This document shows, in pieces, positions 5,221 to 56,300 of a stretch of DNA of 64,000 nt. This stretch comes from a virus, in IMG/VR virus record IMGVR_UViG_3300043434_000871, positions 3,347 through 67,346 of that record. One strand, given 5' to 3'. Below the pieces are notes generated by a model. It did not search any database, was not told where the DNA came from, and was given only the letters and a program-made list of their open reading frames with translations. The first letter of the stretch is position 1, and every line of letters begins with the position of its first letter. The translations under genes were made by a program, and so were the position numbers.

Positions 5221-6321
5221 CTACTCGATGCCGGGCATCGTGCGCTGGCTGGCCGGAACCCAGTCGCCCATGCCTTGCAAGCTCTCGGCTTCGGCATCCG
5301 CCGAACGCAGTGCTTTCCACTCGGCTTCGTCGAGGAGATCGTCGTCGAGGTTCTGCTGCGTCATGCCGACATCTTCGGAGCGTGCGGCCAAGCCGTCGTA
5401 ACTACCGCTCGGGACGGGGTAGGTGCGGTAACAGGAGGAGCCGCTCTTGCCGGAGGAATAGACCGAGAACTCGGAGCGGCGTGCTTCCCACGCTTCGTCG
5501 GCCAAGCTGCGGCCGAGGCTGCGCTGGCTGTGCTTGGCTTCGTGTCGGGTGACTTCGCCATGCTGCCATTTGGTGATCGAGTCGGGTTCGCCATGGCCCG
5601 CGGCAAACTCCATCCACGTCCACGGCTCGATGGCGAAGGCTTCGACACCTTTGCAGCCCCACGCATCGGCGATGGCTTCGATGATCGAGGGCTTGGTGCC
5701 GAAGATCCAACGGCCTTTCTTGGTGATGCCAGCGTAGAGCGAGGCCATGGCATCGACGGCAACGATGAGCCGCCCGCGGGGCGACAGGGCCAGAAAGGCC
5801 GCGTAGCCGGTGATGTGTTTCATCGCCGCTTGCTGCGCCTCGCGGTCGCCCGCATGGTCAACCAAGGCGTAGAGCAAGTGCTGCGAGTCGCACGTCGCCT
5901 TGCGGTGCTCCTTGGTTTGCTTGCCGTGCCAGGTGACGACGCCGTTGTGCGCCAACGTCCAGCCTTTGTGCCTGAACGGGTGCGTGTTGGCGAGGTTCAC
6001 GGCACATGTTGCAGTGCGACCATGGACGATGGTCGGCTTGTTGCGGTGGTAGTAACCGGTCTGCTCGCTGCGGTGCGCGGCGGTGAAGGCGGCGTAGCCA
6101 CGACCGGACAGGTCGTAGAGGGAGGGCAGGGTGTCGAGGGATCGGAAGTCCGATGGCTCGACAAATCTGCCGTGAAGCCCGCTCGGGCCGGACTGGGCGA
6201 AACCGAAGCCGCAGCGTTCGGTCTTGCTGATGGCTTCGCACGCCGCGATGAGGGCGCGGTCGGCGGAGTTGCGTGAGAGCGGGGAGTCTTTGCCCGCGGT
6301 CCATCCTGCTAATTTACACAT
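5221..6321 (-). CDS. Class II (Ntn) glutamine amidotransferase
   Basis: N-terminal MC; HGRTAT, NTHPF, LAHNG and CDS motifs. Confidence 0.85.
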   Translation of the reverse strand: MCKLAGWTAGKDSPLSRNSADRALIAACEAISKTERCGFGFAQSGPSGLHGRFVEPSDFRSLDTLPSLYDLSGRGYAAFTAAHRSEQTGYYHRNKPTIVHGRTATCAVNLANTHPFRHKGWTLAHNGVVTWHGKQTKEHRKATCDSQHLLYALVDHAGDREAQQAAMKHITGYAAFLALSPRGRLIVAVDAMASLYAGITKKGRWIFGTKPSIIEAIADAWGCKGVEAFAIEPWTWMEFAAGHGEPDSITKWQHGEVTRHEAKHSQRSLGRSLADEAWEARRSEFSVYSSGKSGSSCYRTYPVPSGSYDGLAARSEDVGMTQQNLDDDLLDEAEWKALRSADAEAESLQGMGDWVPASQRTMPGIE

Positions 6322-11625: not shown

Positions 11626-12087
11626 CTAGAACCACCGAACCACGGTTCCTGCTTCATGGAACATGGTGCGTGCTGCATGGAACGACTCGGCCCAACGTGT
11701 CGAAGCCGTAGACATGTTTTCGGGACGTGTATACGAATCCTCGATTTTTGGACATATCACCTCGGTAATACCTGCCTGGATGATGGCGGCGGCGCATTGG
11801 GCGCACGGCTGGAAGGGGTAGACCACGATCGAGTAACCGTGGAGCGGCTCACGGGCAGCGAGGATCGCGTTAAGCTCTGCGTGGACCGTGTAGAGGAGTT
11901 TCTGGTCTCGGTCGGCCAGACGGGCCGGATCGTCGGAAACGCCCCTGGGGAGGCCGTTGAAGCCCACGCTGGCCACCGAGCGGTCCGGTCGGATAATAAC
12001 CGCGCCGACTTGGGAGGAGGGGTCACGTGACCAGGAGGCGACGTGTGCGGCAAGGTTAATAAACCGCAACGACCATTTAGGGTTCAT
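11626..12087 (-). CDS. dCMP deaminase
   Basis: GFNG, HAELNAI and PCAQC zinc motifs. Confidence 0.9.
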   Translation of the reverse strand: MNPKWSLRFINLAAHVASWSRDPSSQVGAVIIRPDRSVASVGFNGLPRGVSDDPARLADRDQKLLYTVHAELNAILAAREPLHGYSIVVYPFQPCAQCAAAIIQAGITEVICPKIEDSYTRPENMSTASTRWAESFHAARTMFHEAGTVVRWF

Positions 12088-12149: not shown

Positions 12150-14549
12150 TCAGAAAGGGTCGTCTGACACCTCGGCCTCCGGCTCGATCTCCGGCTTGGT
12201 GATCCGCCACTTGTGCACCTTGTCCTTGCCGAAGCGTCTCTTGAGAAGCGCGACATTGGCATCCCCGCGGGTGGCCAGTTGCGCGAGGCGTTGGGCCAAG
12301 AGCCGCACCGGCCATTCGCGAGTCAGGGAGGCATTGTCGAAGACATCATTGAACGACTGGTGCAGATCGACCGTCGTGCCTTCCCACGGCTCATCGAATC
12401 CGCGGCGTTCCCACCAAGCGTTGAGGGTGTCGCGCAGTTCGGCGTGGCGACCCGAGGCGTCGATCTTGTCGCGGACTTCCGAGGCGATGACTCCGCGGAC
12501 GAAGAAGCGGTTGGTCCGGTCGAGGTATTTCTCGGGGATGTCCCAGTTCTTGATCCAAGCAAGGAGGTAGGGGAGTTCGGTCTCCACGTCCTTGAGGTCT
12601 TCGATCGTCGGGCCTTCCTCGTAAGTCTTGAGGGCCAAGGCGATGATCTTGTCCTCGTTTGAGATGTCGAGAGCTGGGACGGCTTTGATGGAGACCGCGT
12701 CGTCGTTGGCCGCGATGACCACCCGGCCCCGCCATTCGACCATGATCGGGGTGAGATACTTCTCGTGATATTTGTGCTTCCCGTGGGCGACCAGCTTCTT
12801 CACGTAGGAGGCGTAGCGTTGCAGCGCGGACTCGGATTCCGCGGCACGGGAATCGTCGATGATGGCCAGCGGGCTTTGGAATAGGTCGGCATTGAAGCCA
12901 TTACCTTCGCCCGAGACGACCGAGGAGAGATCCGCGTAGCCGCCCATGGCTGGGTAGAGAAGTTTTTCGATCAGGAAAGTTTTATAGCAGTGCACCGGGC
13001 CGACCAAGATCATCGCCTGACCCATGCACAGTTTACCGGCTTCGGCGGATTCGTAGAACCGTTTGAGCCAAGCGAGGAAGACTTCCTTGTAGTCCGGATC
13101 GACGAAAACATTGTCGAGGATCATCGCGTAGCGTGGGAAACCCTCGCCCCAAGCCCCGGCAACGTCTGCCGCTTTAGTGATGCGGACATTCTTGCTCGTG
13201 TTGAGGAATTTCTTGCCGCCGTCGAACCACAGTTCGTGCGGGTTGTAGAGACTCGGGCCTGCCCCGTCCACGCGGCGGTGTTCACGGATGAAAGCTTTGG
13301 CCTTATCCATCGGCGACATGGCAGCACCCTTGGGGGCGCGGTCGCTGAACCCGCGGCATTTGAGTTCGCTGGAGAGCATCGCGACCATCTCGTATCTCCA
13401 GATGCCGTCATCCCCCTTCATAAAAAACGTCTTCCCGTCGTAGTAGATGTCATCAAACCGTCCACTCTTATCGGCTTTGGTGGATGACTTGGGCGTCTCC
13501 GGCGATTCGTTATTCCCGTTTTCGGTGGTTGCGGCATCCTTTGTGCTGCTATCTGGCGAATCCTGACAGTTCTCGGCAAGGGGGGTGACGTTTTGTCCCC
13601 CTCCTTCCAAAACCCTCGAAATCGAGGGGTTTAGAATTCCCGCCTCCGGGTTGAAGTAGATGAGTCGTTGTGCCTTGCCCGTGTCCTTGCGGATGCAGCC
13701 GGGGATGCGGGTGAGCCGCACCGCAGACATCGCGGCGGGGTCCGCGCCGAGCGGGACGAGGAGGTCGGCGATTTCCGAGGCTTTCTCCAGATACTCGGCG
13801 CGGTCTTTGGCTGAGACGCGGACGAGCGCGTGGGCCGACTTCGAGCCTGAGGTGGTCACCGAGACGATCGGGAGGTAGTTGGTAAGATTCGGGTTGAGAT
13901 GTTTAGACAGCACCCGCAGCCAGAGTTCCAGATCGACCGAGTCTGATTCGATGAGCGTGTATTCATAGGCGACCAAGTTTTCCTCGGCGCGTCGGGTTTT
14001 CTTGTTCAACCGCTCGACGAATTTCATCGGTCCCTCGATCGGGTTTACCATGATCCATGCTCCCTCCGTATTATCCGCCAGCGTGCGGTCCACGCGGAGG
14101 TCTTCCATCTTTTGCGACCAGACCAGTTGACCTTGTGATTCCTGCTTGGTGAATATGGCGTTGGCATACTTACCATAAAGGCGACGGAGAAACTCCGAGG
14201 GCGTGATGTCGGTCGGAGGAATCGGAGAGGTCGCGGTGAAATCCTCGATTGAGAGCGGACCTTCCGCAGTCAGGGAGAGCAGAGACTTTTCATCTTTCTC
14301 CCGCTTGAGCGAGACCTTCGGGCGCGGCTCGATAAGTCCTTCCGCCTCGGCGCGGACATTGGCCAGCGTTTCGGCGATCTCCCGCGGCTGCGGGGCACGT
14401 TGCAGGTAGCGCGTGATCCACTGTTCGATGAAGGGGTCATCATAGGTGTTAGCTACCAGCGCGTGCACCGCGCCAAACATCCAAGCGTGGCATCCTTGGC
14501 CGGAGGCGGGGCAGGGGTTCAGTCCGAGTTCTTCAGGTGTGGGATTCAT
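12150..14549 (-). CDS. Primase-helicase (AEP-like primase plus SF3-like NTPase)
   Basis: IESD, SGSKSAHA and RLTRIPG motifs; C-terminal GPVHCYKT, IIDD and IAAN. Confidence 0.75.
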   Translation of the reverse strand: MNPTPEELGLNPCPASGQGCHAWMFGAVHALVANTYDDPFIEQWITRYLQRAPQPREIAETLANVRAEAEGLIEPRPKVSLKREKDEKSLLSLTAEGPLSIEDFTATSPIPPTDITPSEFLRRLYGKYANAIFTKQESQGQLVWSQKMEDLRVDRTLADNTEGAWIMVNPIEGPMKFVERLNKKTRRAEENLVAYEYTLIESDSVDLELWLRVLSKHLNPNLTNYLPIVSVTTSGSKSAHALVRVSAKDRAEYLEKASEIADLLVPLGADPAAMSAVRLTRIPGCIRKDTGKAQRLIYFNPEAGILNPSISRVLEGGGQNVTPLAENCQDSPDSSTKDAATTENGNNESPETPKSSTKADKSGRFDDIYYDGKTFFMKGDDGIWRYEMVAMLSSELKCRGFSDRAPKGAAMSPMDKAKAFIREHRRVDGAGPSLYNPHELWFDGGKKFLNTSKNVRITKAADVAGAWGEGFPRYAMILDNVFVDPDYKEVFLAWLKRFYESAEAGKLCMGQAMILVGPVHCYKTFLIEKLLYPAMGGYADLSSVVSGEGNGFNADLFQSPLAIIDDSRAAESESALQRYASYVKKLVAHGKHKYHEKYLTPIMVEWRGRVVIAANDDAVSIKAVPALDISNEDKIIALALKTYEEGPTIEDLKDVETELPYLLAWIKNWDIPEKYLDRTNRFFVRGVIASEVRDKIDASGRHAELRDTLNAWWERRGFDEPWEGTTVDLHQSFNDVFDNASLTREWPVRLLAQRLAQLATRGDANVALLKRRFGKDKVHKWRITKPEIEPEAEVSDDPF

Positions 14550-14570
14550 ACAAAGGTGATGGGGTTATTA

Positions 14571-15950
14571 CTATTTACGATAAAATTTTGACACAATGGA
14601 TTCTGCTCCGAGGGGGAGGTCTTGGCACCAGTCCGGGGCGGTCGACATGATCTGTTCGACCTCTTGGCGCTTGGCTTCGGCGTCGGCTTCATTGACCAGT
14701 AGCACGACTTCGTCATGCACGCGCATGAGGATTTCATAACCAGCATCTTCCAGTGCCGTGCAGCGGTCCATAAACACATCACGCGCAAACGCTTGCGTGC
14801 AATTCTCGGCCAATAAGCCGCCGTAAAGTTTCACGTCCATCATCTTGCCGTTACGTGGCATCGAGGCCACGATCTCGCCGCGACCGAGGCGGCGCACGTT
14901 GCGGTAAACGAGTTCACGCCCAGAGGGCAGGGGAACGATCAACTCACGATCATTCGGGTCCGTCGAGACTTTCAGCGCCCGGTCGAGCTTGGCCCAGAGA
15001 GCGATGATTTTTGGGGAAGATGCGCGGTAGGACTGCACAATTTCTTCCGCTTCTTGCAAAGTTATGTCGAGTCCCGCCAGCATCTTGGCGACGAGGCAGA
15101 ACTTCGAGGGGCCGCAGCCGTAGCCGAGACCAAGAACACGGGCCTTGGCGAGGAAGCGCATCTTCGGGTCCACATCCTTGAGCGGACGCGGATCGGTGTA
15201 ACCCATCGTCGCCCTGGCGTGGGCTTCGTAGATGTCGATGCCGCTGGCGATTAGTTTGAGCAGATCAAAATCTTTGGCGAGGTAGGGGAGGCAGCGTGCT
15301 TCGATTTGAGCCAAGTCGCAAATGATGAGTGTCTTACCATCCGGTGCCTCGATGAGATTGCGGATGTCCACGCCGGCCACTTCGCCCTTCGGGATGTTCT
15401 GAGCGTTCCAGCCGCCACCTCCGGAGTCTCGTCCCGTCGTAGCGCCAAAAAACTTTAACTCGTAAGGCATCCGACCATCCGGTCGCGTGCGAGCGATCAT
15501 TGTTTGCACCGTCTTGAGGTGTTTGTTGGCTTTGCGATAGTCGCGCACCGCACGCACCCACGGGAACTTGTCGGCGAACTCGGCTTCCCATGCCGCTCCT
15601 TCGGGATCCTTCTCCGCGAAAGACTTCGGCTTGCGGATACCTTCCTTGTCACATTGATCCCGAATCGCCTGCAAGGAAAGCGGAGGGTATTCACCACCGA
15701 TCCACGGAAGGAGAGCCTCGGTCCGGCGCTTCTCCTCGATGAGCTTGGCTTCCGCAGCGCGGAGCTTCTCCAGATTCACCGGCACCCCGCGCATCCCCAT
15801 CTCGCGAGTCATCGCCGAGAGTCTCCATTCACGCTGCGGCATCCGGTGTCCGTGCTCCTGCCAGAGCAGAAACGTCGCCTTGGTGTCATAGAGCGCGTAG
15901 CGGGCGACTTCCTTTTTGAAGTCGTTGGTCATGTAAGGGGATTTAGGCAT
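14571..15950 (-). CDS. polA: Family A DNA polymerase, C-terminal part (ExoIII plus polymerase)
   Basis: YALYD; TTGR; motif A DLAQIEAR; motif B KARVLGLGYG; motif C VHDE. Confidence 0.9.
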   Translation of the reverse strand: MPKSPYMTNDFKKEVARYALYDTKATFLLWQEHGHRMPQREWRLSAMTREMGMRGVPVNLEKLRAAEAKLIEEKRRTEALLPWIGGEYPPLSLQAIRDQCDKEGIRKPKSFAEKDPEGAAWEAEFADKFPWVRAVRDYRKANKHLKTVQTMIARTRPDGRMPYELKFFGATTGRDSGGGGWNAQNIPKGEVAGVDIRNLIEAPDGKTLIICDLAQIEARCLPYLAKDFDLLKLIASGIDIYEAHARATMGYTDPRPLKDVDPKMRFLAKARVLGLGYGCGPSKFCLVAKMLAGLDITLQEAEEIVQSYRASSPKIIALWAKLDRALKVSTDPNDRELIVPLPSGRELVYRNVRRLGRGEIVASMPRNGKMMDVKLYGGLLAENCTQAFARDVFMDRCTALEDAGYEILMRVHDEVVLLVNEADAEAKRQEVEQIMSTAPDWCQDLPLGAESIVSKFYRK

Positions 15951-15959
15951 ATTTCTTTC

Positions 15960-16241
15960 CTAGTCTATATCCAATTTTAGCATCGCCAGCGCAGCCATCT
16001 CTACGGCGCACCGCCACTTGTTTTCCCACCCCTTAATCTGCTCCCGTGCCGCGTTTAGCTCTTTGCGTAACTCGTTAGCACACATGCGAGCATGGCACAA
16101 ATCCCCGACATATGAGACCTTCAGTCTGTCCTTGTCTGCGTAAACATAGGTTCCGCAATGGTAATACCAACGCCGCGATGGTTGCCACTCATTTGACTTA
16201 CCTCCGATGTTGCAATTAGGACATTTCTCAGGTGCGTTCAT
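15960..16241 (-). CDS. Hypothetical Cys-containing protein (within polA insertion)
   Basis: CPNC...HCG...C; ATGA-coupled to the upstream gene. Confidence 0.6.
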   Translation of the reverse strand: MNAPEKCPNCNIGGKSNEWQPSRRWYYHCGTYVYADKDRLKVSYVGDLCHARMCANELRKELNAAREQIKGWENKWRCAVEMAALAMLKLDID

Positions 16242-16525
16242 TTCGCGGCCTCCTCTCTGGCAATGTCGCTAATCTCCATGAGCAAACCGCGATGATCGGA
16301 CACTTTGAGATAACCCTCCGTGGCTAAAGTGCAGATACTCCGCAACGCCTCCCGCGCCTCGTCGCGCTCGCGGATAAGCCTGTCAATCGAGTTTAGTTCT
16401 GTGAGACTTCGCGCCTCGTCGCGCTCGCGTTCGAGACGCTCACACGTCTCCCGCAGCACAAACGACCACTGCCCGTTGCTGGCGATGACCGCCGCCGCCG
16501 TCTCTGGCGTGGGTCTGTCGCTCAT
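16238..16525 (-). CDS. ERERDEAR coiled-coil phage protein (within polA insertion)
   Basis: MSDRPTPET start; RERDEAR twice. Confidence 0.65.
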   Translation of the reverse strand: MSDRPTPETAAAVIASNGQWSFVLRETCERLERERDEARSLTELNSIDRLIRERDEAREALRSICTLATEGYLKVSDHRGLLMEISDIAREEAAK

Positions 16526-16857
16526 TTCGCGGCCTCCTCACCTAAAATTTTTGCGATGTCCTTTATTGCAGCATAAAAATCGCTGATTGCTTCCAAAGCT
16601 CCCGGCTTGCCATCAACCTCGTCGTAATCCTCAGCATACGCCTCTGCAAAACGGCGCAGTTCGTGGCCCGCTGAATACAAGTTTCGGGCAAGCTCCCGCG
16701 CCTCGTCGCGCTCGCGGATCAACGCCTCGCAGCCATCGCACACCGCATCGATCACCTCGCTAGTTTGTTTTGGGCACGGCATCTGCTGGTTCCAATCCTC
16801 GCCACGCCGCCATTTGTTAAACTCCCGCAAGCTAGCGATAGCTGCTAGTTCGTTCAT
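16522..16857 (-). CDS. ERERDEAR-type phage protein (within polA insertion)
   Basis: FNKWRRG and RERDEAR motifs; ATGA overlaps. Confidence 0.65.
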   Translation of the reverse strand: MNELAAIASLREFNKWRRGEDWNQQMPCPKQTSEVIDAVCDGCEALIRERDEARELARNLYSAGHELRRFAEAYAEDYDEVDGKPGALEAISDFYAAIKDIAKILGEEAAK

Positions 16858-17072
16858 TTTACCCCCTTCCATTTGGTTTTTTTTTTCTGCGGCCGGATGT
16901 AGGCGGTGATCTGTGCTTTGGCGCGTTGGGCGTCTTCGATCGCCCAGTTGATGCGTTCGATGCACTCGCTGAGTTCTCCGGAGATCCAGAGGTCTTGGGC
17001 GAAGCCCAGACTGGTTTTACCTGTGGTGATGTTCAGATAGGCGTGTTCGATAGGTGGGATTTTTCGTTTCAT
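16854..17072 (-). CDS. Hypothetical protein (within polA insertion)
   Basis: ATGA overlaps at both ends. Confidence 0.55.
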   Translation of the reverse strand: MKRKIPPIEHAYLNITTGKTSLGFAQDLWISGELSECIERINWAIEDAQRAKAQITAYIRPQKKKTKWKGVK

Positions 17073-17272
17073 CGTCTGACAAAGGATTGCCCGGCCAGCC
17101 AAGTGGCGCGGAGGTGTTCGTGACTGCCGTCGGCTTTCCAAAGGAAGGCTTCGCGGCGGTGGGTCTTAGGGTCGGTTTCGAAGGTCACATAGCCTTCGTT
17201 TTCGGCTCCGAAGTTTTGCGGCGTGAGCCAGCCGCTTACGGCTTCGAAAAGTTTACAGAGTTGCGGGTTCAT
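17069..17272 (-). CDS. Hypothetical protein (within polA insertion)
   Basis: Starts inside the last codons of the exonuclease ORF. Confidence 0.5.
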   Translation of the reverse strand: MNPQLCKLFEAVSGWLTPQNFGAENEGYVTFETDPKTHRREAFLWKADGSHEHLRATWLAGQSFVRR

Positions 17273-17672
17273 TCCATCTTAGTCCTTTCATGTTGGTTCG
17301 GGTGGTTTTCGACATTTCAATGCCGAGCAATTCTTTGGCGGCTTCTTTGAGTGAGCGCGGGTAGCCGAGGTAACTAGCCAAGTCGGCGGTGTCATAGACC
17401 GCCCGAGGTTGCACTCGTGGCACGATCTCGCTCTCGACCAACGCCTCGTAGAGGGTTAGGTCGAAGGCGGCGTTGTGCATGATCCAGTCGAGCCCGTCGC
17501 AGTCTTGCCACGGAGCGTCTTTCGGTGCACCGACGAAGCACATGCCGTCATCGAAATACATCGCGACCATGTAGATGTCGGTGGCGCGGGCGTAGTGCCA
17601 TGCGCCCATGGTGGTCACCGAGGTATCGGTGTCGTAGTAGCTCTCGAAATCGATGGCGACGGCTTGGTTCAT
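17253..17672 (-). CDS. Family A DNA polymerase, N-terminal 3'-5' exonuclease part (ExoI, ExoII)
   Basis: AIDFES (ExoI), HNAAFD (ExoII), YDT...SLK; no ExoIII. Confidence 0.85.
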   Translation of the reverse strand: MNQAVAIDFESYYDTDTSVTTMGAWHYARATDIYMVAMYFDDGMCFVGAPKDAPWQDCDGLDWIMHNAAFDLTLYEALVESEIVPRVQPRAVYDTADLASYLGYPRSLKEAAKELLGIEMSKTTRTNMKGLRWNEPATL

Positions 17673-17860
17673 AGTTCGTAGATTTGCGCGGGGAGATGTT
17701 CCTCCAGCCAGAGGATCTCGGTGAGCATGTTGCCGGCCAGCAGGCAGAGTTCCTCGATGAGGTCTTCTTGCCCGGAGATGTCGTCGATCAACTGCCCGAG
17801 GGTCGTGAACGAGTCACGAGGCCCGAAGCTGATGCGCCCGATTGTGAAGTCGTCGTTCAT
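17669..17860 (-). CDS. Hypothetical acidic protein
   Basis: Stop overlaps the exonuclease start (ATGA). Confidence 0.5.
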   Translation of the reverse strand: MNDDFTIGRISFGPRDSFTTLGQLIDDISGQEDLIEELCLLAGNMLTEILWLEEHLPAQIYEL

Positions 17861-18032
17861 AATACTTTTGTCTTCTTTTCTTGCTGAATTTTGCTTTGAC
17901 CCCCGCCGGTGTTGTCCGGTGCCACTTTCCGCAGAACAGGCAGAAGTAAACGTCCTGCCCCGGAAACTTGGCTTCCGCTTCGCTTGGATAAGCTCGCTTG
18001 GTTAAACAACCGGCGATGTAGTCGTGCGGCAT
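17814..18032 (-). CDS. Small basic putative zinc-binding protein
   Basis: CLTKRAY...YFCLFCGKWH. Confidence 0.6.
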   Translation of the reverse strand: MPHDYIAGCLTKRAYPSEAEAKFPGQDVYFCLFCGKWHRTTPAGVKAKFSKKRRQKYYERRLHNRAHQLRAS

Positions 18033-18035
18033 GAC

Positions 18036-18200
18036 TCATTCCTCCTCTGCCTCCTCCGGATCGCAGCGGCAGTCTTCGCCGAAGCGGTCGCACTCACGGC
18101 ACCAGTATTCACCCGGATCGGAGCGGCGGCTCCAGTAGTCATCGGCGTCGGCCATGAGCGTATGGCCCTCGTCGTAATCCTGATCGGGATCGCTGGGCAT
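18036..18200 (-). CDS. Small acidic Cys-containing protein
   Basis: MPSDPDQDY...CREC...CRC. Confidence 0.5.
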   Translation of the reverse strand: MPSDPDQDYDEGHTLMADADDYWSRRSDPGEYWCRECDRFGEDCRCDPEEAEEE

Positions 18201-18202
18201 GG

Positions 18203-18478
18203 TTACTTTATCCTCCACACGCGGATGCGCGGTCTTTTGCGTTGGTCTTTCACGATGCGTGTGGCGAACTGCCACCCGAGCCGTTTGCCTGTCGTGTAGG
18301 CACAAGAGCGCAGGCCGTTGAATTTGCTTTGGTCGGTCGCCGGATAGAGAAACGACTCCCCGGCCTTCAACTCCAGGCACAAGAAGCTCATGGGATTCAG
18401 GTAGCGTTCTTGCTTGCCCGGTCTTTTGGCCGTGAGCGGCACGTCGTCGTCGATTGTGATGGTGTAGGTGCGTTTCAT
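18203..18478 (-). CDS. Small putative DNA-binding protein
   Basis: IDDDVPL...LKAGESF...FATR...IRVWR pattern. Confidence 0.65.
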   Translation of the reverse strand: MKRTYTITIDDDVPLTAKRPGKQERYLNPMSFLCLELKAGESFLYPATDQSKFNGLRSCAYTTGKRLGWQFATRIVKDQRKRPRIRVWRIK

Positions 18479-18561
18479 TTCGACTGTTTTTCCTGCATGG
18501 CAAGCCAAGCCCCGAAGCCGATAAGTCCGAGCCACGAGAAGACGAGACCGATAAAAGGCAT
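18475..18561 (-). CDS. 28-aa membrane peptide
   Basis: MPFIGLVFSWLGLIGFGAWLAMQEKQSK; overlaps both neighbours at start/stop. Confidence 0.5.
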   Translation of the reverse strand: MPFIGLVFSWLGLIGFGAWLAMQEKQSK

Positions 18562-18914
18562 CACTTCCATTGCCCCCGGTGGCAGAGCAGGCCGATGACG
18601 CCGTAGTTGGCGATGTCGAGCCAAGTGTCCTCGACCTTCTCGTGTTCAGGTGATTTGTCGTTCCACACGAGCGTCTTGAGGCGCTCGATCTTGTCGTTCA
18701 TGCGAACGACGATGCCTTTTTCTCCGAAGGCGGAGATGTTGCCGCTTCCGTAGTCGCGTTGCTTGGTGTCGAGGAGAACAGCAGCCCGGCAGAATTCTTG
18801 GAACGCCTTGCGTCCCATCGCGGTGGTGAGGCCGAGAGCATCGGCGGTTTTTTCGATGAGTGCCTCGGCATCGTAGAGGTCGAGTGGATTGTATGTATTT
18901 ATTACAGTATTCAT
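18561..18914 (-). CDS. DUF1599 / nucleotide-modification-associated domain 1 protein
   Basis: KQRDYG...VRMNDKIERL...EDTWLDIANY. Confidence 0.8.
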   Translation of the reverse strand: MNTVINTYNPLDLYDAEALIEKTADALGLTTAMGRKAFQEFCRAAVLLDTKQRDYGSGNISAFGEKGIVVRMNDKIERLKTLVWNDKSPEHEKVEDTWLDIANYGVIGLLCHRGQWK

Positions 18915-19017
18915 AGAGAGTGGTTGGGGCGATGAAGTCCCCGGAGGAGGAAGAAAGGCCGGCACACGCCGGGCGGACACCCACAGTCCACGTAAGACCT
19001 CCTCCGGGGGTAATTCA

Positions 19018-19227
19018 TCAGTAGGTTTTCTTGCGTTGCCAGACTTCGACGCGCCCGAGGTAGCCGCTGAAAGCGGTCTCTTTTCCGGCGCTCTCTGCAT
19101 CCGCCAACAAGCGGCGCAGCATTCCTTGTTCGCGCACACTGCTGCTGTAAGGGCCGGCCAGCGGCACGAACCCGTCACAGTGCAGTTCGGTTTCCTTGCG
19201 AAGGGGAAGAGTCTTATAGTCCGGCAT
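19018..19227 (-). CDS. Hypothetical protein
   Basis: TAATG coupling with the upstream gene. Confidence 0.5.
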   Translation of the reverse strand: MPDYKTLPLRKETELHCDGFVPLAGPYSSSVREQGMLRRLLADAESAGKETAFSGYLGRVEVWQRKKTY

Positions 19228-19996: not shown

Positions 19997-22420
19997 TTAC
20001 TTTTGTCTCTTGAGGTAGTGATAAGTCCCTTCGGACTTGGCCGCATTGGCATCCACCAAGGCGTCACGAAGTTGGTCTTTGGTTTTCGCCATCTCGCCTC
20101 GTTGGGCCGTGCGGGCGATGACTTTTTCCAGATCACCGATTTTTACTTCGGCGCAGGCGGCAAAGGCTTCCGGCGAGATCCGGCCCTTCACTACGTCCCA
20201 TGCGGCCTGGGCGTCGGTGATCTTGAACGGCAGCTTGCGCTCGGCCAGTTCCCATCCCGGAATCTCGATGCCCTCGTTAAGCCGCATCTCCAACGCACGG
20301 GCGTCTACCTTCTCGGCCCAAGATTTCATGATCGGCGCGGCTTTCTTGGCTAGCGCCATCATATTCGGATCGGTGATGTTGGCTGGGTCGTATTGCGCCG
20401 GTAGTGCCAATTCGTCGGCCTTGTATTGCGTGGCGATGGTGAGTGCCAAACTGGAGAGTTTCGGGCAACTGGCCTGCCGTCCGCACCAAGCGCAGTGTGC
20501 TCCGGTCAAATAAGTCGAGGGGTCATCCCGCCTCGCGGCTGCGATGATGGCGGTGGTTTGCGCGGAGAGACGTTCGTAGTCTTTTTCCCGAGACCACGTC
20601 TCTTGGTCAATGACCCCCCGAAAGGGTAATAAAACATGCACGGTTATTAATTCAATGTCCCGATGAGCATCCCACAATCCGACGGCATACGCCCAGAATT
20701 GAGGAGAGTCCGCGACGTATTCGCCCCATGCAAACTTGTAGTCGATCAACTCCGCCGACGCCCCATGCAGGATGATGTGGTCGATGTGTCCGAATTGGTC
20801 TTGGATTTGATACCGCTGCTCCCGAAGCTCCCGATGCGGACCGAGGCGTTTTCTTAATGCTGCCAGATACTTCAGACACATACCCGCCGCCTCGCGCAGC
20901 TTTGGATCGTCCGGCGGGATCACGTCGAGATTTTCTTTCTCCACGGCGAGGTGACCGAGAGTCCCCCGGTCGGCGGCGCTTTTGTCGCGGGTTTGATCGT
21001 TGCGGAATCCTGGGCATTTGGCTTTCTCCTTGAGTGATGAGGGGCTGTGCTCGCTGTGAGCTTTCTCCTCGGGTTGTGGGGTTATTACCTTGGTCACGGG
21101 TATTGAGACATCACCCCATTGACTTACGTTCAAACTTTTTTCTCCCGCGTTGAGAATTTTTACATTGTCCCGTTTTTCCGCCGTGAGTTTGAGGGCGGCT
21201 TGCTCGATCGTCCCCCCGGCGTAGAGCCTTATCGCCAACGCCCGAGACTTCGCACCCACGCGAGAGATTCGTCCAACAGCTTGCTCCTCGACAGTGCCAG
21301 AGAACTGGGGACAAAGCAGTGCAACTCGTGGAAAACGTCCGTCAAGATCGTGAAGGTCGATACTTTGTCCTCCCGCGGCGATTTGCACGATGACGATGCG
21401 GAGATCGTTGCTCTGGAAGCGGGCTTGGATGCCTCGGCGTTTTTCCGCCGGCACGCGCCCGTCGAGCACGCAGTCTTCCTCGAAGTGGATTCGCGCTGCG
21501 TCGATCGACTCATGGAAGTTGAGAAAGAGCACGACGGAGCCTCCCGCCTCGATGATTTCTTTGGCTCTCTCGACGAGGTAGGGGACTTTGACTTTTTCAA
21601 TAGCTTGGCGCTGGCGGAGGTTTTTGACGCCGCCCGGATCTTTAGGATCTGACATTTCTTCATAAAGTTCTTTGATCGCAGTGCGGTCCTTCGGGTTCAG
21701 CCACAGCGGTTCATCCTCGGTCATAAGCTCCGGCAACTGCTCCCGCAGCACCTCCTCGGTCACGCGGTATCCGCGGTTCGCGAATACCGAATGGTGCAGC
21801 CGATCCATCGCCGCCTTGTTCTGCGGCAGATGCGGGTTCCATTCGAGGCCACCCCATCGGGATTCCTCGGCCCCCATCTCGCGCACCCACTTCCAGAAAT
21901 ATCCACCCGAGAACAACCGCAGATTCACCCCGATCGCCTTCATGCGGAGAGGGGATTCCGCTGCCGTCGCCGAGAGCATCAGCACGTAGTGCTCCGCCGC
22001 TGCCTCCAGCATCTTGCCGTTCTGCGAATTGTAAGCGCCATACATATGCGCTTCGTCGAAGATCATCAGACACCGCTCGGGAAGATTCCACGCAAACTTT
22101 GCGGAGTTTGCCCGTTTATTCCCGCCGGGTAATCTCTTCAGCCAATCGGTGTTCCCTGCCCGCAGCTTCTCGGGATTCAGCACAAAGAGCGGCTCGACTC
22201 GAAAAGCCCGCAGCGTGCTTTCCCATTTCGAAACGACACTTTTCGGACATATAACGCACGTTTTTAGCGAAAATCGTGCAGCTACCGCGCTGGCGATCAC
22301 CGTCTTGCCGCCACCGCAACCCGTGCCATCAAGACTCGCGCCTACGGAATCGAGGATTTTCAGATGCCGCTCCACGGCGTCTTTTTGATATTGAAAAAGT
22401 TTGAACGCTTTGGTTATCAT
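19997..22420 (-). CDS. SF2 (SNF2-like) helicase fused to a Cas4-like/DUF2800 PD-(D/E)XK nuclease
   Basis: GGGKT, DEAH, SAT, QAVGRISR; then SPSSL...CPG, GTLGH, IDYK and CAWC...C. Confidence 0.85.
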   Translation of the reverse strand: MITKAFKLFQYQKDAVERHLKILDSVGASLDGTGCGGGKTVIASAVAARFSLKTCVICPKSVVSKWESTLRAFRVEPLFVLNPEKLRAGNTDWLKRLPGGNKRANSAKFAWNLPERCLMIFDEAHMYGAYNSQNGKMLEAAAEHYVLMLSATAAESPLRMKAIGVNLRLFSGGYFWKWVREMGAEESRWGGLEWNPHLPQNKAAMDRLHHSVFANRGYRVTEEVLREQLPELMTEDEPLWLNPKDRTAIKELYEEMSDPKDPGGVKNLRQRQAIEKVKVPYLVERAKEIIEAGGSVVLFLNFHESIDAARIHFEEDCVLDGRVPAEKRRGIQARFQSNDLRIVIVQIAAGGQSIDLHDLDGRFPRVALLCPQFSGTVEEQAVGRISRVGAKSRALAIRLYAGGTIEQAALKLTAEKRDNVKILNAGEKSLNVSQWGDVSIPVTKVITPQPEEKAHSEHSPSSLKEKAKCPGFRNDQTRDKSAADRGTLGHLAVEKENLDVIPPDDPKLREAAGMCLKYLAALRKRLGPHRELREQRYQIQDQFGHIDHIILHGASAELIDYKFAWGEYVADSPQFWAYAVGLWDAHRDIELITVHVLLPFRGVIDQETWSREKDYERLSAQTTAIIAAARRDDPSTYLTGAHCAWCGRQASCPKLSSLALTIATQYKADELALPAQYDPANITDPNMMALAKKAAPIMKSWAEKVDARALEMRLNEGIEIPGWELAERKLPFKITDAQAAWDVVKGRISPEAFAACAEVKIGDLEKVIARTAQRGEMAKTKDQLRDALVDANAAKSEGTYHYLKRQK

Positions 22421-51783: not shown

Positions 51784-53345
51784 ACGAGTTCGAACAGTTT
51801 ATCGCTAACGAATACGGGCTTAAAGCTGGAGACGATGTCAGCGGAATCATCGATGATGCTCGCGCCCGTTTTCGCGCAATGAAGAGTGCGCCAACAACCC
51901 AGCAGACGGAACCATTTCTTCAAAGGGAGATGGCCAAGATTCCGGAGACGCCAAATGCTCAATCCGTGCAGCAGTCACGGAGTCAGCCAGCCGATGATGG
52001 GTTGTTCGAAATGGGGTTTATCGGTCGACAAAACGTGAACCCTGTTTACGTGTTTGCTGATGAAGTGGCACAGCAAGAGGCCAAAGCGCCGGCTCAACCG
52101 CAACAGCAGCAAAAGCCCTCCCTCGACGTGAATGCCTTCTTAAAGGCGACTAATGCCCGTCAAATGGAGCTAGAAGCGGTCCGTCCACTGGCGACAAACA
52201 ACTACCGCCGCAAGGAAACGGATGAGGCGCTCAATAACGCCAATAATGAACTACTCCGTCGGTATGCTACAGACGCCGATCTTCTCGCTCAATATGGAGT
52301 CAATGATGTTAAGACATTTAACCAGGTGTCCGAAGAGCCTTTTGAAGTTCGGGCGAAGGCGTGGCAGATAGTTCAGCCTAAGTTGGACCGTGGCGAAGTG
52401 CCGGATTGGCTGGGTGCAATCGAGCAGGTCAAAAAATCGAATAGTCTGCCGAGTGCTACGGGAGCGTCCAACGAGGCTGGAATGCCGAAAGCGCCTGATG
52501 ATCTGAAAAGATATGAGACTAGGGAGATCGCGGCGGCTCGGGCTGCGGAAAGCCCGACTCCTGATAATTTAATGAAGGTTGAGGCTTTGGACCGTGAGAT
52601 CAATCAAACTGATGGTAATGAGAGGTATGTCAAACAGGTCGGGTTCATCGACAATAAGCTGAACAACCTCCGGGACATGATGGCGACCCCAAACAACTTA
52701 ATCGCTTCGGGATATACCAACCCTTTTACAGGACAGCCGATTCAAGATCTCGATGAAGCGAAGGAAGTTGAAAACCGTTTGGTAGCTTCTCGTGCTCGAA
52801 CTGTTGTCGAAATGAAAAATGCCGGACCTGAGTTCTGGCAAGGCTTACCTTCCCCCGCGACTTTCCCGTATAAAACAACAATCAAAGATGCGGCCGAAGA
52901 TCTCCGCAAGGCAGGCGTAACCAACCTCAAACCTAGAGAACACCTCGAAACTTTACGGCGCAAAGAGTGGGTGGACTACGAGAAAAGTCGCGGCCCAGGT
53001 TTCCTCTATGTTGCGCCGACAGCGGACGGAAACCTCAACTTAATTGAGAGCACGCCTGTCGTAAGTAAGTCCGACCCCAACGCGATTTCTCCAGATAATC
53101 CTCTAGCCGGAGCAGTGGCCGAGGAGGAAATGGCAGCGACTCGTAATAATGAAGCCGCTTTCCGTAGCCAATTAGATGCTGCACAACGCCGCGTTGCCAG
53201 ACTCGCTGATACAAGCAAGCCAATGCAATTTGAGGTTTCCCCGACGCAGTCTCGGAATTTTACGGCTAGGGAGCGTGCGCTTGAGATTGAGGGTTTGCAG
53301 AAACAAATCACGGCACTCCAAGAAAAACTGAGTAAACTCCAGTAA
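51780..53345 (+). CDS. Putative internal virion protein
   Basis: 521-aa helical ORF before the giant gene. Confidence 0.55.
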   Translation: MNEFEQFIANEYGLKAGDDVSGIIDDARARFRAMKSAPTTQQTEPFLQREMAKIPETPNAQSVQQSRSQPADDGLFEMGFIGRQNVNPVYVFADEVAQQEAKAPAQPQQQQKPSLDVNAFLKATNARQMELEAVRPLATNNYRRKETDEALNNANNELLRRYATDADLLAQYGVNDVKTFNQVSEEPFEVRAKAWQIVQPKLDRGEVPDWLGAIEQVKKSNSLPSATGASNEAGMPKAPDDLKRYETREIAAARAAESPTPDNLMKVEALDREINQTDGNERYVKQVGFIDNKLNNLRDMMATPNNLIASGYTNPFTGQPIQDLDEAKEVENRLVASRARTVVEMKNAGPEFWQGLPSPATFPYKTTIKDAAEDLRKAGVTNLKPREHLETLRRKEWVDYEKSRGPGFLYVAPTADGNLNLIESTPVVSKSDPNAISPDNPLAGAVAEEEMAATRNNEAAFRSQLDAAQRRVARLADTSKPMQFEVSPTQSRNFTARERALEIEGLQKQITALQEKLSKLQ

Positions 53346-56300
53346 TGGCAGCATCTATGAACTGGTGGGAAGACGAAGAACAGATTGCCGCATATTTACA
53401 GGAGCGCGAAGCTCCCGTAGAGACCGCGCAACAATCTGAAGCCGTCCGTCCCACGGATGTTGATCTAGGACTAAGCCCGGAAGCCCCCGAGCAAGCGTTA
53501 CAAGAGCCAGCCGAAACAGCGACTCCTTGGTGGCAAGACACGACTCAGTTAGCCGCTTATCAAGAGGATCTTCGGAGTATCGGTCGGGCGGCGACTTCCG
53601 CCGGGTCTGTGGACGCACGAGTTCAGAGGGGTTTGGTGGATGAATTTAGCGCCGGGCTTTCTCGCGGCATCGACCAGACCCAAGCCCTTGGATATGGGTT
53701 GCTCGGTCTCGTGGGTGAATCGCTCGGGGTGGACGCTGTTTCTGATTTTGGTATCGAGGGCTATGTCCGCAACATGGAGGAGGCGGCGAAGAATCAAGCC
53801 TCGGTGCAAGATCCTTTCGAGGAGATCGGCGGGGTGGGTGACGCAGGGCTTTACGCGGCGGGGATTCTCGGCGAGCAGTTGCCACAGCTTTTGCTTTCGG
53901 TCGCGGGCGGCGGCATCGGCGGTTACGCGGCGAAGACGGTGGCGAAGAAAGTCGTGGCCAATGAGATCGGCAAGCGGGTGGCCGCGGGCATGGCCAAGGA
54001 TGAAGCCGAGGAAGTCGTGGCCAAGCTCGTCGCCCAGAAGGCGCTTCGGGGATTTGATGTGCCTTTTGCCCGTGCTGGCGGTGGCGACCCGCGTATCGTC
54101 GGCGGCATCGGCCAAGAAGCCGTGCAGCAAGCGACCCGTGCCGGTGCTCTCGGTGGCGCGTATGTCGCCAACGTGGGGCAGATCGCGGGCGGCAGCTTTG
54201 GTGAGATCGAGCAGGAGACGGGACTTCGTGATCCGGTGAACGCACTCGGCTTTGCTTTGATCGGCGGTGCAGTGGAGACGGCGGGTGAAGCGGTCTTGGC
54301 GGCACCGATTGCGCGGAAGCTGATCGGCTCGGCGGCGCGTAGTGTGGAGGCTAAACCTCTCGGCTTTGCGCTCGGACCGAAGGCGAAGGTGGCGGGTCAA
54401 CTCGCCGCGGCTCCGGCGGCGGAAGGTGCGACGGAGTATGTGCAGACGGGCTTGGAGCAAAGTGCCGTGGCTTCGGCGGACCCGAACAGATCTTTTGAGG
54501 AAGTGGTGCTCACCCCTGAAGCGGCTCGTGAGCGGCAGATTGCGGCCGCAGCGGGAGCCGTGGCCGGCGGCGGCTTCGGAGCCGTGAGCCAGGCAGCGAG
54601 TTTCTTGATCCCCGAAACACGAAACGCGGTTCAGCGTAAGTTGGCTCAACGGCAAGCGGAGCAGGGGGCGACGGAGGAAGATCAATCTGCCGCTGGGATG
54701 CTGACGGGTGACTGGTCGCAGCCGGTGCAGGTGGATGATGTGACGATGCAGCGGAATTCCTCCGGTGTATGGGTCGCGGTGAATCCAGGGGAGAATCTTT
54801 TCCAAGGTGTCCCTCGGGTGCAGACGGAGGACGGCACGTCGCTGTTGGTGGTGAGCCCCGAGGCTGACGAGCAAGGGCGGGCAGCTTTCTTGGTGGCTCG
54901 GGCGGAGAAGGCGTTGAGTGATCTCGATGAGGGCGAGGTTGCTACAGAATTTCAATCACAAGAGGAGCCCGCGGCGGAGGCTGACGATGAACTCGGTGAA
55001 CCTGTTGAACTTGATGAGGAGACCGAAGCTACGAGGTTGCGTCAGAGCCCGATGGGCGCGACGGCGTTGCGCGAACAGTTGGCAGAGGAAGAGGAGGTTT
55101 CGGCGGCTTTGGCCGATCCGGTTGTCTCTAGTGTAGAACCTCCCGCGCCACAGCCGCTCAAGTCAGCAGCGGAATCAGCGCAAACAATCGCCGCAGAGTT
55201 GGAGCGTGAGGAGGAATTTCGTCGTAGTGATGAGGGAGCCCAAGCCTTGCGCGAGCAGTTGGCGGAGGAAGAGGAGGTGTCGGCGGCTTTGGCTGACCCG
55301 GCGACGAGTGAGGAAAGAGGCGAAGCTACCGTCTTAAAACCAGCTTCAGAATCCGCAGCGGCCATCCAAGCTGCCGAGAATGCCGAGCGCACGACCGCTA
55401 ACAATCCTGTCGAAGCATCCTATCTCCGTCGCCGTTTGGCTTACGAAGAGTCACAGAGCGAAAGGCAGAAAGGTAATGACGAAGCTCTGGCCCGTCCTCT
55501 AACTCAGTCAGCGGCGTTTGTTGATGGATTGCAGACGGGCCAGCGGGTTGGGCTGTTGCTTGGCGGTATGCCTGAGGCTCTGGCTGGGACGACGGGTGTC
55601 TTTGTCGGACGCCGCAAGAACGGAAATGCAGTTTTCGAGGCGAGTGATTTGTCCCCAGTGAGCGGAGACCCGATCGGGCAAAAGACTCGCGTCGAGTTAA
55701 AGCCTTCGCAGTTTAACCGCGTGATCTTGGCTCCACCCCCGCAGCCGACACGCACTCCGCTGGAGCAAGCCTTCGACGACGCGCTCGGACCGAACCCGAC
55801 CAAGCAGCAAGCCGAACGTGTTCTTGGACCGCCCTACACGGGAACCCGCGGGGCGCAGGAGTCGACTTTCCAAGATGGTCTAGGCTCGGAGCCGTTTCCG
55901 GTGTTGATTAGCTGGTTCAATAAGAAGGGTGAGAAGGGGACAATCATCCCCTCGATCAAAGGTAAGTTCACCAATTCTGCGCTGACCACGGTGCGTCAGA
56001 TGAACCAAGGTCTTGAGATTGTGGTGCCGGATGACCAACTTGGGAAAATAAGCAAAGACATCCAAGTTGAGGCAGTGAGCGACAAGAAAGGTGGCCGAAA
56101 GAACATCGTGACGGGCGTCAACCTATGGGGCCGCACCTATCGCCGCAGCCTTCGCTCGCCAAAAGATTTCAGCGTCGATATCCCGCTGACCAAACGCGGT
56201 GCCGGAGCTCGCAAACAAGGGCTGCTGCTTTTCGACAACATCTACAAGAACTCGCCGGAGCGTATCGCCCGCAGCGAAGCCGCAGTCCGCGGAGCCAAGG

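Follow-up and report, generated by a model that had tools for sequence, protein, structure and literature searches.

A family A DNA polymerase encoded by two ORFs and cut within the proofreading domain in an uncultured freshwater phage

Family A DNA polymerases are usually single chains. In an uncultured freshwater phage, we found that the family A DNA polymerase is encoded by two ORFs, with the cut lying within the proofreading domain. How could such an enzyme function? The initial annotation of this DNA left three options: the two polypeptides reassemble, the insert is excised, either from the DNA or from the RNA, or proofreading has been lost. Reassembly is the option that we favor. Loss of proofreading is disfavored by invariant catalytic motifs, and removal of the insert is disfavored by a variable frame and by the presence of a conserved gene, g1, at the junction. 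The relevant features of the window (the whole 64,000-nucleotide stretch of DNA that was analyzed) are as follows:

17253..17672, minus strand: exoN, the N-terminal piece of the polymerase (139 aa); ExoI (D8, E10) and ExoII (N67, F70, D71) lie in its 3'-5' exonuclease core
17069..17272, minus strand: g1, a 67-aa orphan with its ATG inside the last codons of exoN, kept in split relatives
16854..17072, minus strand: g2 (72 aa, ATG at 17072), ATGA overlap with g1, no family match
16522..16857, minus strand: g3 (111 aa, ATG at 16857), ATGA overlap with g2, RERDEAR motif
16238..16525, minus strand: g4 (95 aa), ATGA overlap with g3, a small protein of the "ERERDEAR" kind
15960..16241, minus strand: g5 (93 aa, Cys/His-rich), ATGA overlap with g4, no family match
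14571..15950, minus strand: polC, the C-terminal piece of the polymerase (459 aa), whose 6-residue new N-terminus is followed by the ExoIII helix (Y18, D22) and a complete polymerase domain with motifs A, B, and C
12150..14549, minus strand: gene for a primase-like protein (799 aa), with its start 21 nt beyond polC
16349..16375 and 16693..16719, no strand assigned: 27-nt exact direct repeat, inside g4 and g3

The two halves and the reality of the split

The initial annotation had placed ExoI and ExoII in exoN and ExoIII with the polymerase motifs in polC, and motif alignments, PHROG 17, and Pfam all agree with this assignment. exoN matched positions 670-788 of the PHROG 17 (DNA polymerase) profile and polC matched positions 804-1231; thus, the two proteins correspond to adjacent parts of one profile. 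In Pfam, PF00476 matched polC with 96 bits, and PF01612 matched exoN with 21.7 bits, slightly below the cut-off of 23.6 bits. The proposed join of the halves is the one found in intact homologues. In the relatives L015 and L020 (64% identity), the part equivalent to exoN residues 1-135 runs up to base 6000 and the part equivalent to polC residues 7-459 follows from base 6001, and an uninterrupted polymerase gene is also present in L021 (48% identity). Joined as in these relatives, at either level of identity, the halves leave neither a gap nor an overlap, and the best intact matches of both lie in the same contigs (L015, 61% for exoN and 64% for polC). exoN runs 4 residues beyond the join point, and polC carries 6 extra residues before it. 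A search for a second polC match across the whole record returned just the one polC.

The break lies 11 residues N-terminal to the ExoIII tyrosine. In an AlphaFold2 model of an intact relative (P0042, pLDDT 90.7), this position falls between secondary-structure elements, after a 3-residue turn (147-149); a 2-residue linker and then the long ExoIII helix (residues 152-179) are both C-terminal to it. The region is well ordered in the model (pLDDT 95-97), with no floppy loop.

A false split arising from an assembly chimera or a sequencing error is exceedingly improbable for the following reasons: Contigs assembled from four sequencing runs in four studies bridge the junctions and confirm both of them. 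A single contig of run X1 covers 14400-17900 with 0 differences, and contigs of X2 bridge both junctions (X1 and X2 are possibly the source runs of this DNA). From other studies, a contig of X3 (17140-17365) bridges exoN/g1 and a contig of X7, a wastewater run, bridges g5/polC (15720-15999). Finally, the break is at one and the same codon in all 17 IMG/VR relatives in which both halves are visible (78-87% identity, from many metagenomes). L010, an 18th relative, starts with the same new N-terminus, and each of the 28 protein clusters with at least 74% identity begins at the split site. We additionally counted 49 stand-alone exoN clusters. As a side observation, the Logan contigs of X2 end at the 27-nt repeats of g3 and g4. 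Among cultured phages, polC identity was at most 28% and exoN was unmatched, and a scan of bacterial and archaeal genomes returned no relative.

Proofreading motifs divided between two polypeptides

All three motifs of a DEDD exonuclease, named ExoI (DxE), ExoII (NxxFD), and ExoIII (YxxxD), are present, and they are carried by two polypeptides. ExoI D8 and E10 and ExoII N67, F70, and D71 are invariant in 24 of 24 stand-alone exoN proteins, and ExoIII Y18 and D22 are invariant in 18 of 18 split polC proteins. In a profile alignment to the Klenow fragment, ExoIII lies opposite RYAAED, and ExoII aligned weakly to the HNxxFD of RNase T (E 0.03). An alignment between Klenow and the profile of intact relatives extends through the DYSQIE, AKAINFG, and VHDE regions, confirming a family A polymerase domain, and around motif B the polC of the window is identical to the consensus of intact relatives. 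The Leu that the initial annotation had noted in motif B, and had connected with temperate phages, is indeed opposite the Phe of Klenow AKAINFG in the profile alignment, at a position that we take to be residue 762 of the Escherichia coli enzyme. Median pairwise dN/dS was 0.185 for exoN (n = 14), 0.118 for polC (n = 15), and 0.185 for g1 (n = 14), values indicating that all three genes are under purifying selection.

The best reading of these data, and in our judgment quite a probable one, is a two-subunit polymerase whose proofreading site would be rebuilt from two polypeptides. The replicative polymerase would consist of two separately translated proteins, most likely assembling without a covalent join. 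The proofreading core, bearing ExoI and ExoII, would come from exoN, and the ExoIII helix would come from polC together with the full polymerase domain; a single exonuclease site of the DEDD type would thus be composed of two chains, because the first two motifs are on exoN and the third is on polC. We infer physical reassembly and retained proofreading. exoN, the five small genes, and polC are on one strand with starts and stops that overlap or lie close together, and they are probably cotranscribed, with coupled translation. No terminator-like site was predicted on the coding strand between 14571 and 17672.

We weighed this reading against loss of proofreading, in which polC alone would act as an exonuclease-deficient polymerase and exoN would be a relic or serve another role. 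A precedent is in print: CCPol, as described in that source, is a natural family A polymerase from whose exonuclease domain about 110 residues are missing, with only the last helices remaining (PMC10201439), and its existence indicates that a protein like polC can be stable alone. Against such a loss stand the invariance of the ExoI and ExoII residues in the 24 stand-alone exoN proteins and of the ExoIII tyrosine and aspartate in the 18 polC proteins, the purifying selection on exoN, and the fact that exoN never leaves the polymerase operon. We therefore consider loss of proofreading unlikely.

We also weighed removal of the insert at the DNA or RNA level (by an intron, programmed excision, or bypass), which would yield one full-length polymerase. 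The halves of the window are in the same frame, 1335 nt apart (15933-17267), and the arithmetic of the initial annotation on this point is correct. The frame, however, is not conserved. Over 20 split loci, the window included, the conserved parts of the halves are 374-3476 nt apart, and this distance leaves a remainder of 0, 1, or 2 on division by 3 in 4, 7, and 9 loci, respectively; the shared frame in the window is thus a matter of chance, because the spacing falls in all three frames. The insert is wholly filled by tightly coupled ORFs, and the junction holds a conserved coding gene, g1, that is under purifying selection. Scanned against Rfam at E up to 1, positions 14000-18500 yielded no match (a novel ribozyme is outside the reach of this test). 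The insert has no recognized recombinase, and no direct repeats were found flanking the junctions. We looked for an insert-free form in the assembled contigs, and none joins across the insert, although rare forms can escape contigs. In favor of removal, besides the same frame in the window, P0021-type and P0113 relatives carry an insertion of 300-330 residues elsewhere in polC, and those of P0021 and P0018 are intein-like; these insertions suggest that mobile elements visit the polymerase gene. Pfam detected no intein domain in the P0021 insertion (about 330 residues), which we presume to be an intein from its end motifs. On balance, we consider removal very improbable, more so than loss of proofreading.

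An intein or split intein at the break was also considered and rejected, since new termini of 4 and 6 residues leave no space for one (our criterion was blocks of at least 100 residues at the break and a nucleophile at +1). Tails of 4-6 residues are likewise too short to act as docking clasps between the halves. The short termini, the blank Rfam scan, and the lack of a nuclease family in g1-g5 together bear out the view of the initial annotation that no intein, intron, or homing nuclease is present. Separately, an 11-nt repeat occurs at 15882 and 17388, inside conserved coding sequence; we give it no weight because, by our estimate, chance alone would produce about 0.3 matches of this kind in a stretch of 1.6 kb.

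The genes between the halves and the origin of the arrangement

The initial annotation described five genes coupled by ATGA overlaps. This description holds for g1/g2, g2/g3, g3/g4, and g4/g5, but not for the two ends of the series: exoN and g1 overlap by 20 nt, and 9 nt containing AGGAAAG separate the g5 stop from the polC start. The gene map was also corrected at g2 and g3, whose starts we place at the ATGs at 17072 and 16857. g3 is a paralogue of g4 (32% identity over 84 aa). Small "ERERDEAR" proteins of the g4 kind also occur in the cassettes of relatives (weak matches, E about 8e-4), and no homologues of g2, g3, or g5 were found among 54 related loci. In contrast, g1 is present in 17 of 17 split relatives with a visible upstream region. 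It may nonetheless be dispensable, because it has an internal stop in one relative (L014). Judged from the sequences compared, the interval separating exoN and polC accommodates hypervariable cargo, and g1 is its sole conserved gene. An ORF of 146-172 aa in the cassettes of some relatives was considered as a candidate PD-(D/E)xK nuclease, an assignment that was unsupported, as the ORF matches phrog_18407 alone and has no PDB relative.

Searches with g1 gave no family in Pfam, PHROG, or PADLOC, 0 Foldseek matches in PDB and BFVD at E of 0.001 or below, and nothing usable in the protein Atlas. A HMMER search over 1.84 billion representatives returned 12 matches, of which 10 are small proteins of the same family; the other 2 are large repeat proteins that we judged spurious. 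Complex prediction was run on exoN, polC, and g1 with g1 scored as the partner; the score was 0.00, to which we attach no weight in either direction.

The initial annotation pictured a five-gene cassette dropped into the polymerase gene. The actual situation is more complex: no counterpart of g2, g3, or g5 exists elsewhere among the 54 loci, g1 alone is conserved, and g1 adjoins the 3' end of the polymerase gene in intact relatives. In L036 and L040-type contigs, a g1 homologue follows the intact polymerase gene at a distance of 0-25 nt; in L048 and L049, whose polymerases are 37-43% identical, this distance is about 0.5 kb. The gap between polC and the primase gene is 9-21 nt in split relatives compared to 1.5-1.8 kb in intact ones, where it is filled with variable genes that begin with or hold g1 (L036-type, L040-type, and L048/L049); g1 was not found in the polymerase-primase interval of L015, L020, or L021. 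Because g1 directly follows the polymerase gene in intact relatives, we infer that the split most likely arose through rearrangement of this ancestral downstream block. The rearrangement would have set the block (g1 and a variable cassette) between the halves or, equivalently, moved polC beside the primase gene; the gene was probably not cut by a foreign mobile element. We saw no remnant of a duplicated polC or exoN of the kind that would establish a route by duplication and deletion.

The polC tree bears on how often this happened. At least two changes of state are needed, and an intact protein (P0085) nests among the split ones; because of these two features, repeated gains, reversal, and spread by recombination are indistinguishable. 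On this tree, the split polymerases belong to at least three lineages, namely the window clade, P0040/P0044, and P0109; the contigs of P0040 and P0109 were not found in IMG/VR or JGI metagenomes. Monophyly of the split rows alone was rejected (p-AU 0.0002), and the split rows together with P0085 form one side of a branch (support 37).

Some of these observations could be accommodated by a different origin, in which a selfish, g1-led mobile cassette inserted in the polymerase gene and then spread to this site in other lineages, in the manner of homing elements. The presence of the split in at least three lineages, the intact P0085 among split proteins, and the rejection of split-only monophyly all favor it. 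So does the exoN tail of P0167 (the partner of P0044), which ends like that of the window and thus suggests the same g1-type junction in P0044/P0167, and so do those relatives whose cassettes carry the 146-172-aa ORF of phrog_18407 (function unknown). However, no nuclease, integrase, or transposase family was recognized in any cassette examined. For nucleases, Pfam, PHROG, and PADLOC gave none in g1-g5, and Pfam gave none in the nine cassette ORFs of relatives that were examined (six of these ORFs were also compared with PHROGs and two with PADLOC, again with none). Moreover, g1 sits beside the intact gene even at 37-43% identity, as expected of ancestral linkage, and the position of P0085 with all split rows on one side of a branch is compatible with a single origin and one reversal. 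A mobile cassette is thus a possible but lesser explanation compared to rearrangement of the downstream block.

More speculatively, and with somewhat less confidence than we give the mobile cassette, the middle of the polymerase gene may be a protected harbor for a changing cassette led by g1, with split and intact states swapped by recombination between related phages and with g1, which stays beside the polymerase in both states, acting as a new small accessory factor of the replicase. Exchange by recombination would explain both the split forms in several lineages and the nested intact form. If such a harbor exists, proofreading would fall to a naturally two-chain DEDD nuclease, and the phage could adjust the ratio of its subunits.

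Comparison with known split polymerases

A clade-wide cut through the proofreading domain offers a natural test of whether a DEDD site can assemble from two polypeptides. It would likewise test where the seam of the exonuclease domain lies, which is of use in the engineering of split polymerases, and by what route variable cargo comes to settle in essential genes.

Essential enzymes in pieces are known from other phages. 43A/43B of T4-related Aeromonas phages is a split family B polymerase, and nrdA of phage Aeh1 is split by mobE. PhiKZ DNAP N+C is likewise a split family B polymerase, as described in its source (PMC13648687). In these cases, so far as the descriptions at hand extend, the two pieces of an essential replication enzyme assemble stably, as we propose for exoN and polC, and several have extra genes between the pieces, as does the present locus. 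The present locus differs from PhiKZ and 43A/43B in the polymerase family, which is B there, and from arrangements of the Aeh1 type in that a recognizable free-standing homing endonuclease is present there, whereas none was recognized here.

Split family A polymerases are also known, as a rare arrangement, from S-SBP1-like cyanophages and from OM43 phages, at sites described as different from the one here. In the S-SBP1-like T7-like cyanophages, the source describes fission of PolA by a +1 frameshift that gives two overlapping genes (PMC10201439, Czernecki et al. 2023). As in our phage, the exonuclease and polymerase genes are separate, there is no intein or intron in that account, and the new termini are short; the halves are also predicted there to associate as in the intact enzyme (PMC10201439). 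By the same description, nothing lies between the two genes of S-SBP1, whereas five genes (1.3 kb) do so here and 0.4-3.5 kb across relatives. The S-SBP1 cut is described as falling between the exonuclease and polymerase domains, whereas ours precedes ExoIII, so that the exonuclease active site would be shared between two chains.

In the OM43 phages MEP401 and MEP402, the portion of the report at hand describes a family A polymerase in two ORFs with a small ORF of unknown function between them, a split shared by most related metagenomic genomes, and its authors left an intron possible (PMC10580990). The break is reported to lie inside the polymerase domain, with ORF13 encoding the exonuclease domain together with the N-terminal part of the polymerase domain (PMC10580990). 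In contrast to the single small ORF described there, our phage has a break in the exonuclease domain and a multigene hypervariable spacer.

The closest likeness to polC itself is in CCPol-MP of staphylococcal SCCmec, which, as described, also keeps only the last helices of the exonuclease domain; the missing piece is of similar size (about 110 aa in CCPol and about 135 aa in polC), and the predicted partner of CCPol is MP, a small beta-barrel protein (PMC10201439). Whereas that account places no complementary exonuclease gene near CCPol, here exoN is present and conserved.

Position and reality of the split

The two polymerase genes lie on the minus strand in a tightly packed row, in a source record of 67,346 bp (estimated 97% complete) of which the window covers 64 kb. 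The runs containing this DNA were freshwater metagenomes and one wastewater run. The row comprises:

17669..17860, minus strand, ORF of 63 aa, first of the row
17253..17672, minus strand, exoN, N-terminal piece of the polymerase with ExoI and ExoII
17069..17272, minus strand, g1, small gene
16854..17072, minus strand, g2, small gene
16522..16857, minus strand, g3, small gene
16238..16525, minus strand, g4, small gene
15960..16241, minus strand, g5, small gene
14571..15950, minus strand, polC, C-terminal piece with ExoIII and the polymerase domain
12150..14549, minus strand, primase-like gene

The 63-aa ORF runs with its stop into the start of exoN, g1 starts within the final codons of exoN (20-nt overlap), and the g1/g2, g2/g3, g3/g4, and g4/g5 boundaries are ATGA overlaps. 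No terminator-like sites were found on the coding strand of 14571-17672, and one weak promoter-like match lies directly upstream of polC. Flanking the replication genes are a gene of the dCMP deaminase type (PF00383) and one whose product has a DUF1599 domain, "nucleotide modification associated" (11626-12087 and 18561-19178, both minus strand), an arrangement that may point to modified nucleotides. An 807-aa protein (19997-22420, minus strand) matches a helicase PHROG over residues 4-430 and an exonuclease PHROG over residues 440-771 and appears to be a fused helicase–nuclease of the same replication module. A 3409-aa ORF (53345-63574, plus strand) matches phrog_22602, "virion structural protein"; it is reminiscent, in size, of the giant virion proteins that N4-like phages carry. 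The contigs of relatives measure 66-74 kb.

Both halves match one DNA polymerase profile, PHROG 17, exoN at positions 670-788 and polC at the adjoining 804-1231. Scanning IMG/VR with polC as query gave 21 related loci, three of which carry a single continuous gene: L015, L020 (64% identity), and L021 (48%). In L015/L020 the exoN match runs up to base 6000, with the polC match taking over at base 6001; because the matches abut, the join proposed in the initial annotation is the natural one, and the halves come from one lineage rather than from different PolA lineages with gaps or overlaps. When a profile of 44 intact relatives was aligned to the Klenow fragment, the ExoIII tyrosine came 11 residues after the break, and Leu stood opposite the Phe of Klenow AKAINFG, bearing out the earlier reading of motif B. 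When the intact relative P0042 is modelled with AlphaFold2 (pLDDT 90.7, pTM 0.88), the break is predicted to follow a three-residue turn (147-149) and to precede a two-residue linker and the long ExoIII-bearing helix (152-179).

The split falls at the same codon in every one of the 17 loci of 78-87% identity that show both halves, and in L010, which is cut by a contig end, polC begins with the same six extra residues. In a large protein collection, 28 of 28 clusters at ≥74% identity start at the split site, and stand-alone exoN accounts for 49 clusters. Contigs from four runs in four studies bridge the junctions (two of these runs are possibly the source of the window DNA), and no assembled contig, in which rare variants would be invisible, joined exoN to polC across the insert. 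With junctions bridged in four runs and 17 relatives split alike, an assembly chimera is rejected. We conclude that the split is real, and neither an artefact nor a private oddity of one genome.

Five close relatives (74-78% identity: P0017, P0018, P0020, P0021, and P0027) have polC proteins of 757-791 aa. P0018 and P0021 carry a 320-330-residue insertion exactly between the positions of window polC N383 and C384 (14799-14804); its presence in P0017, P0020, and P0027 is deduced from protein length and coverage only, and window polC is without it. The ends of the insertion look, in our estimation, intein-like, and Pfam found no intein domain in it.

Assembly and proofreading

An insert with no homing nuclease, intein, or intron had been described, and this held: we found no nuclease, recombinase, or intein families in g1-g5 and no Rfam families at E up to 1, and the new termini at the break are 4 residues on exoN and 6 on polC. 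Nor were repeats found flanking the junctions. The two halves do share a frame in the window, as noted initially, but this is not a meaningful signal: the spacing between their conserved parts is 374-3476 nt across 20 split loci, not all of them independent, with remainders modulo 3 of 0, 1, and 2 in 4, 7, and 9 of them. The shared frame is thus coincidence, since the spacing takes all three frames. Together, these results argue against removal of the insert at the DNA or RNA level. Because nothing detected could splice exoN and polC, the reading left standing is that they would assemble non-covalently as two subunits, as was also proposed for the S-SBP1-type split polymerase (PMC10201439).

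The remaining possibility was that proofreading had been lost. Across 24 exoN proteins, ExoI (D8, E10) and ExoII (N67, F70, D71) do not vary, nor does ExoIII (Y18, D22) across 18 polC proteins, and median pairwise dN/dS in the split clade was 0.185 for exoN, 0.118 for polC, and 0.185 for g1 (omitting five truncated or duplicate rows: L007, L017, L018, L019, and L020). These findings argue against a loss of proofreading, and we consider a two-subunit proofreading polymerase the best reading and a quite probable one.

The variable cassette and the origin of the split

Five small genes are present between the halves, as annotated, but only g1 is common to all split relatives (61-69% identity to g1 of the window); g2, g3, and g5 occur in none of 54 loci, and g4 has weak matches to relatives' cassette ORFs. 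In L014 g1 has an internal stop, and in L006 and L017 it is fused to a longer ORF. A second small gene, gK (about 57 aa), is present in every split relative examined and was not found in the window or the whole source record. Also encoded in the relatives' cassettes are a phrog_18407 protein, additional small coiled-coil proteins of the "ERERDEAR" kind, and more orphans. The paralogues g3 and g4 have in common an exact 27-nt repeat (16349-16375 / 16693-16719), at which contigs of run X2 break, and gene ends near-identical or identical over 21 nt (16235-16255 / 16519-16539); through such repeats, cassette genes might be gained and lost. By sequence comparison, the halves are separated by a hypervariable cargo region, with g1, an ancestral neighbour gene, as its anchor.

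In seven split relatives inspected (among L001-L019), the cassette ends in one of four different genes (gK or three others), all of which share the same few terminal codons and extend 8 nt past the start of polC. The window differs: the TAG stop of g5 is separated from polC by a spacer of 9 nt, and polC is preceded by a ribosome-binding-like site of its own, AGGAAAG.

Homologues of g1 were few: a search of 1.84 billion representatives gave 12 matches, ten of them to proteins of 66-129 aa and the other two to large proteins and judged spurious. On these matches g1 belongs to a small orphan family. Its predicted fold has two helices and a four-stranded sheet (pLDDT 93.3), for which no structural relatives were found at an E of 0.001 or better.

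Intact genomes place g1 downstream of the polymerase: it overlaps the polymerase stop in L036-type contigs, begins ~10 nt past it in L040-type contigs, and lies ~0.5 kb past the gene in L048/L049 (polymerase 37-43% identical). In all these types, 1.5-1.8 kb of variable genes, including in L036 and L040 a cytosine-methyltransferase-like ORF (named from motifs only), separate the polymerase and primase genes, versus just 9-21 nt between polC and primase in split genomes. Given this position of g1 and these gaps, the simplest account would be a swap in the order of two blocks, g1 plus variable cassette and the polC segment, with no foreign element needed to cut the gene. The exoN/g1 junction in most split relatives is ATGAAATGG and the L036 polymerase-stop/g1 junction is ATGAAATGA, from which we infer compatibility with microhomology rather than proof of it.

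An intact sister clade (L036-L043; P0029-P0034, P0036, and P0038) has, at precisely the split site, a Pro/Lys-rich loop of 16-19 residues. Its last residues (VPK...M) resemble the new N-terminus of polC and those before them bear a loose likeness to gK's C-terminal tail, both over short stretches; the loop may be a scar left by the split, or else its precursor.

A 112-row FastTree of the polC region (eight fragments dropped, four ambiguous-start rows left unlabelled) required at least three split/intact changes, and a 42-row IQ-TREE under a mixture model at least two. The latter left unresolved a group of the window clade, the intact loop clade (16-19 residues), a seamless intact clade, and a mixed clade of split P0109, P0040, and P0044 with intact P0085. 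Split rows plus P0085 formed one side of a branch with support of 37, and split rows alone were rejected as a clade (p-AU 0.0002). The split may have arisen once and then reversed, may have spread by recombination, or may have occurred repeatedly. A stand-alone exoN, the putative partner of P0044, ends like window exoN, which hints at the same g1-type junction in that lineage. In the P0164/P0109 lineage (putatively one 46,127-bp contig), exoN is 70% identical to that of the window and polC only 54%; these halves may have different histories, pointing to recombination between them.

Comparison with known split polymerases

Split family A polymerases are already known, and a limited full-text literature search found none in which the cut lies between ExoII and ExoIII and a variable cassette of several genes intervenes. 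They were first reported in 2023 in S-SBP1-like cyanophages, where a frameshift put the exo domain and the pol domain into two adjacent genes that overlap (PMC10201439), and an uncultured cyanophage lineage has been described with a split polymerase (10.1101/325100). In OM43 phages the enzyme is described as broken within its polymerase domain, the two pieces being separated by a single small ORF (PMC10580990). For PhiKZ, a family B enzyme from two genes, the complex has been solved (PMC13648687). The truncated CCPol is described as retaining only the last exonuclease helices (PMC10201439), and polC resembles it in keeping only these.
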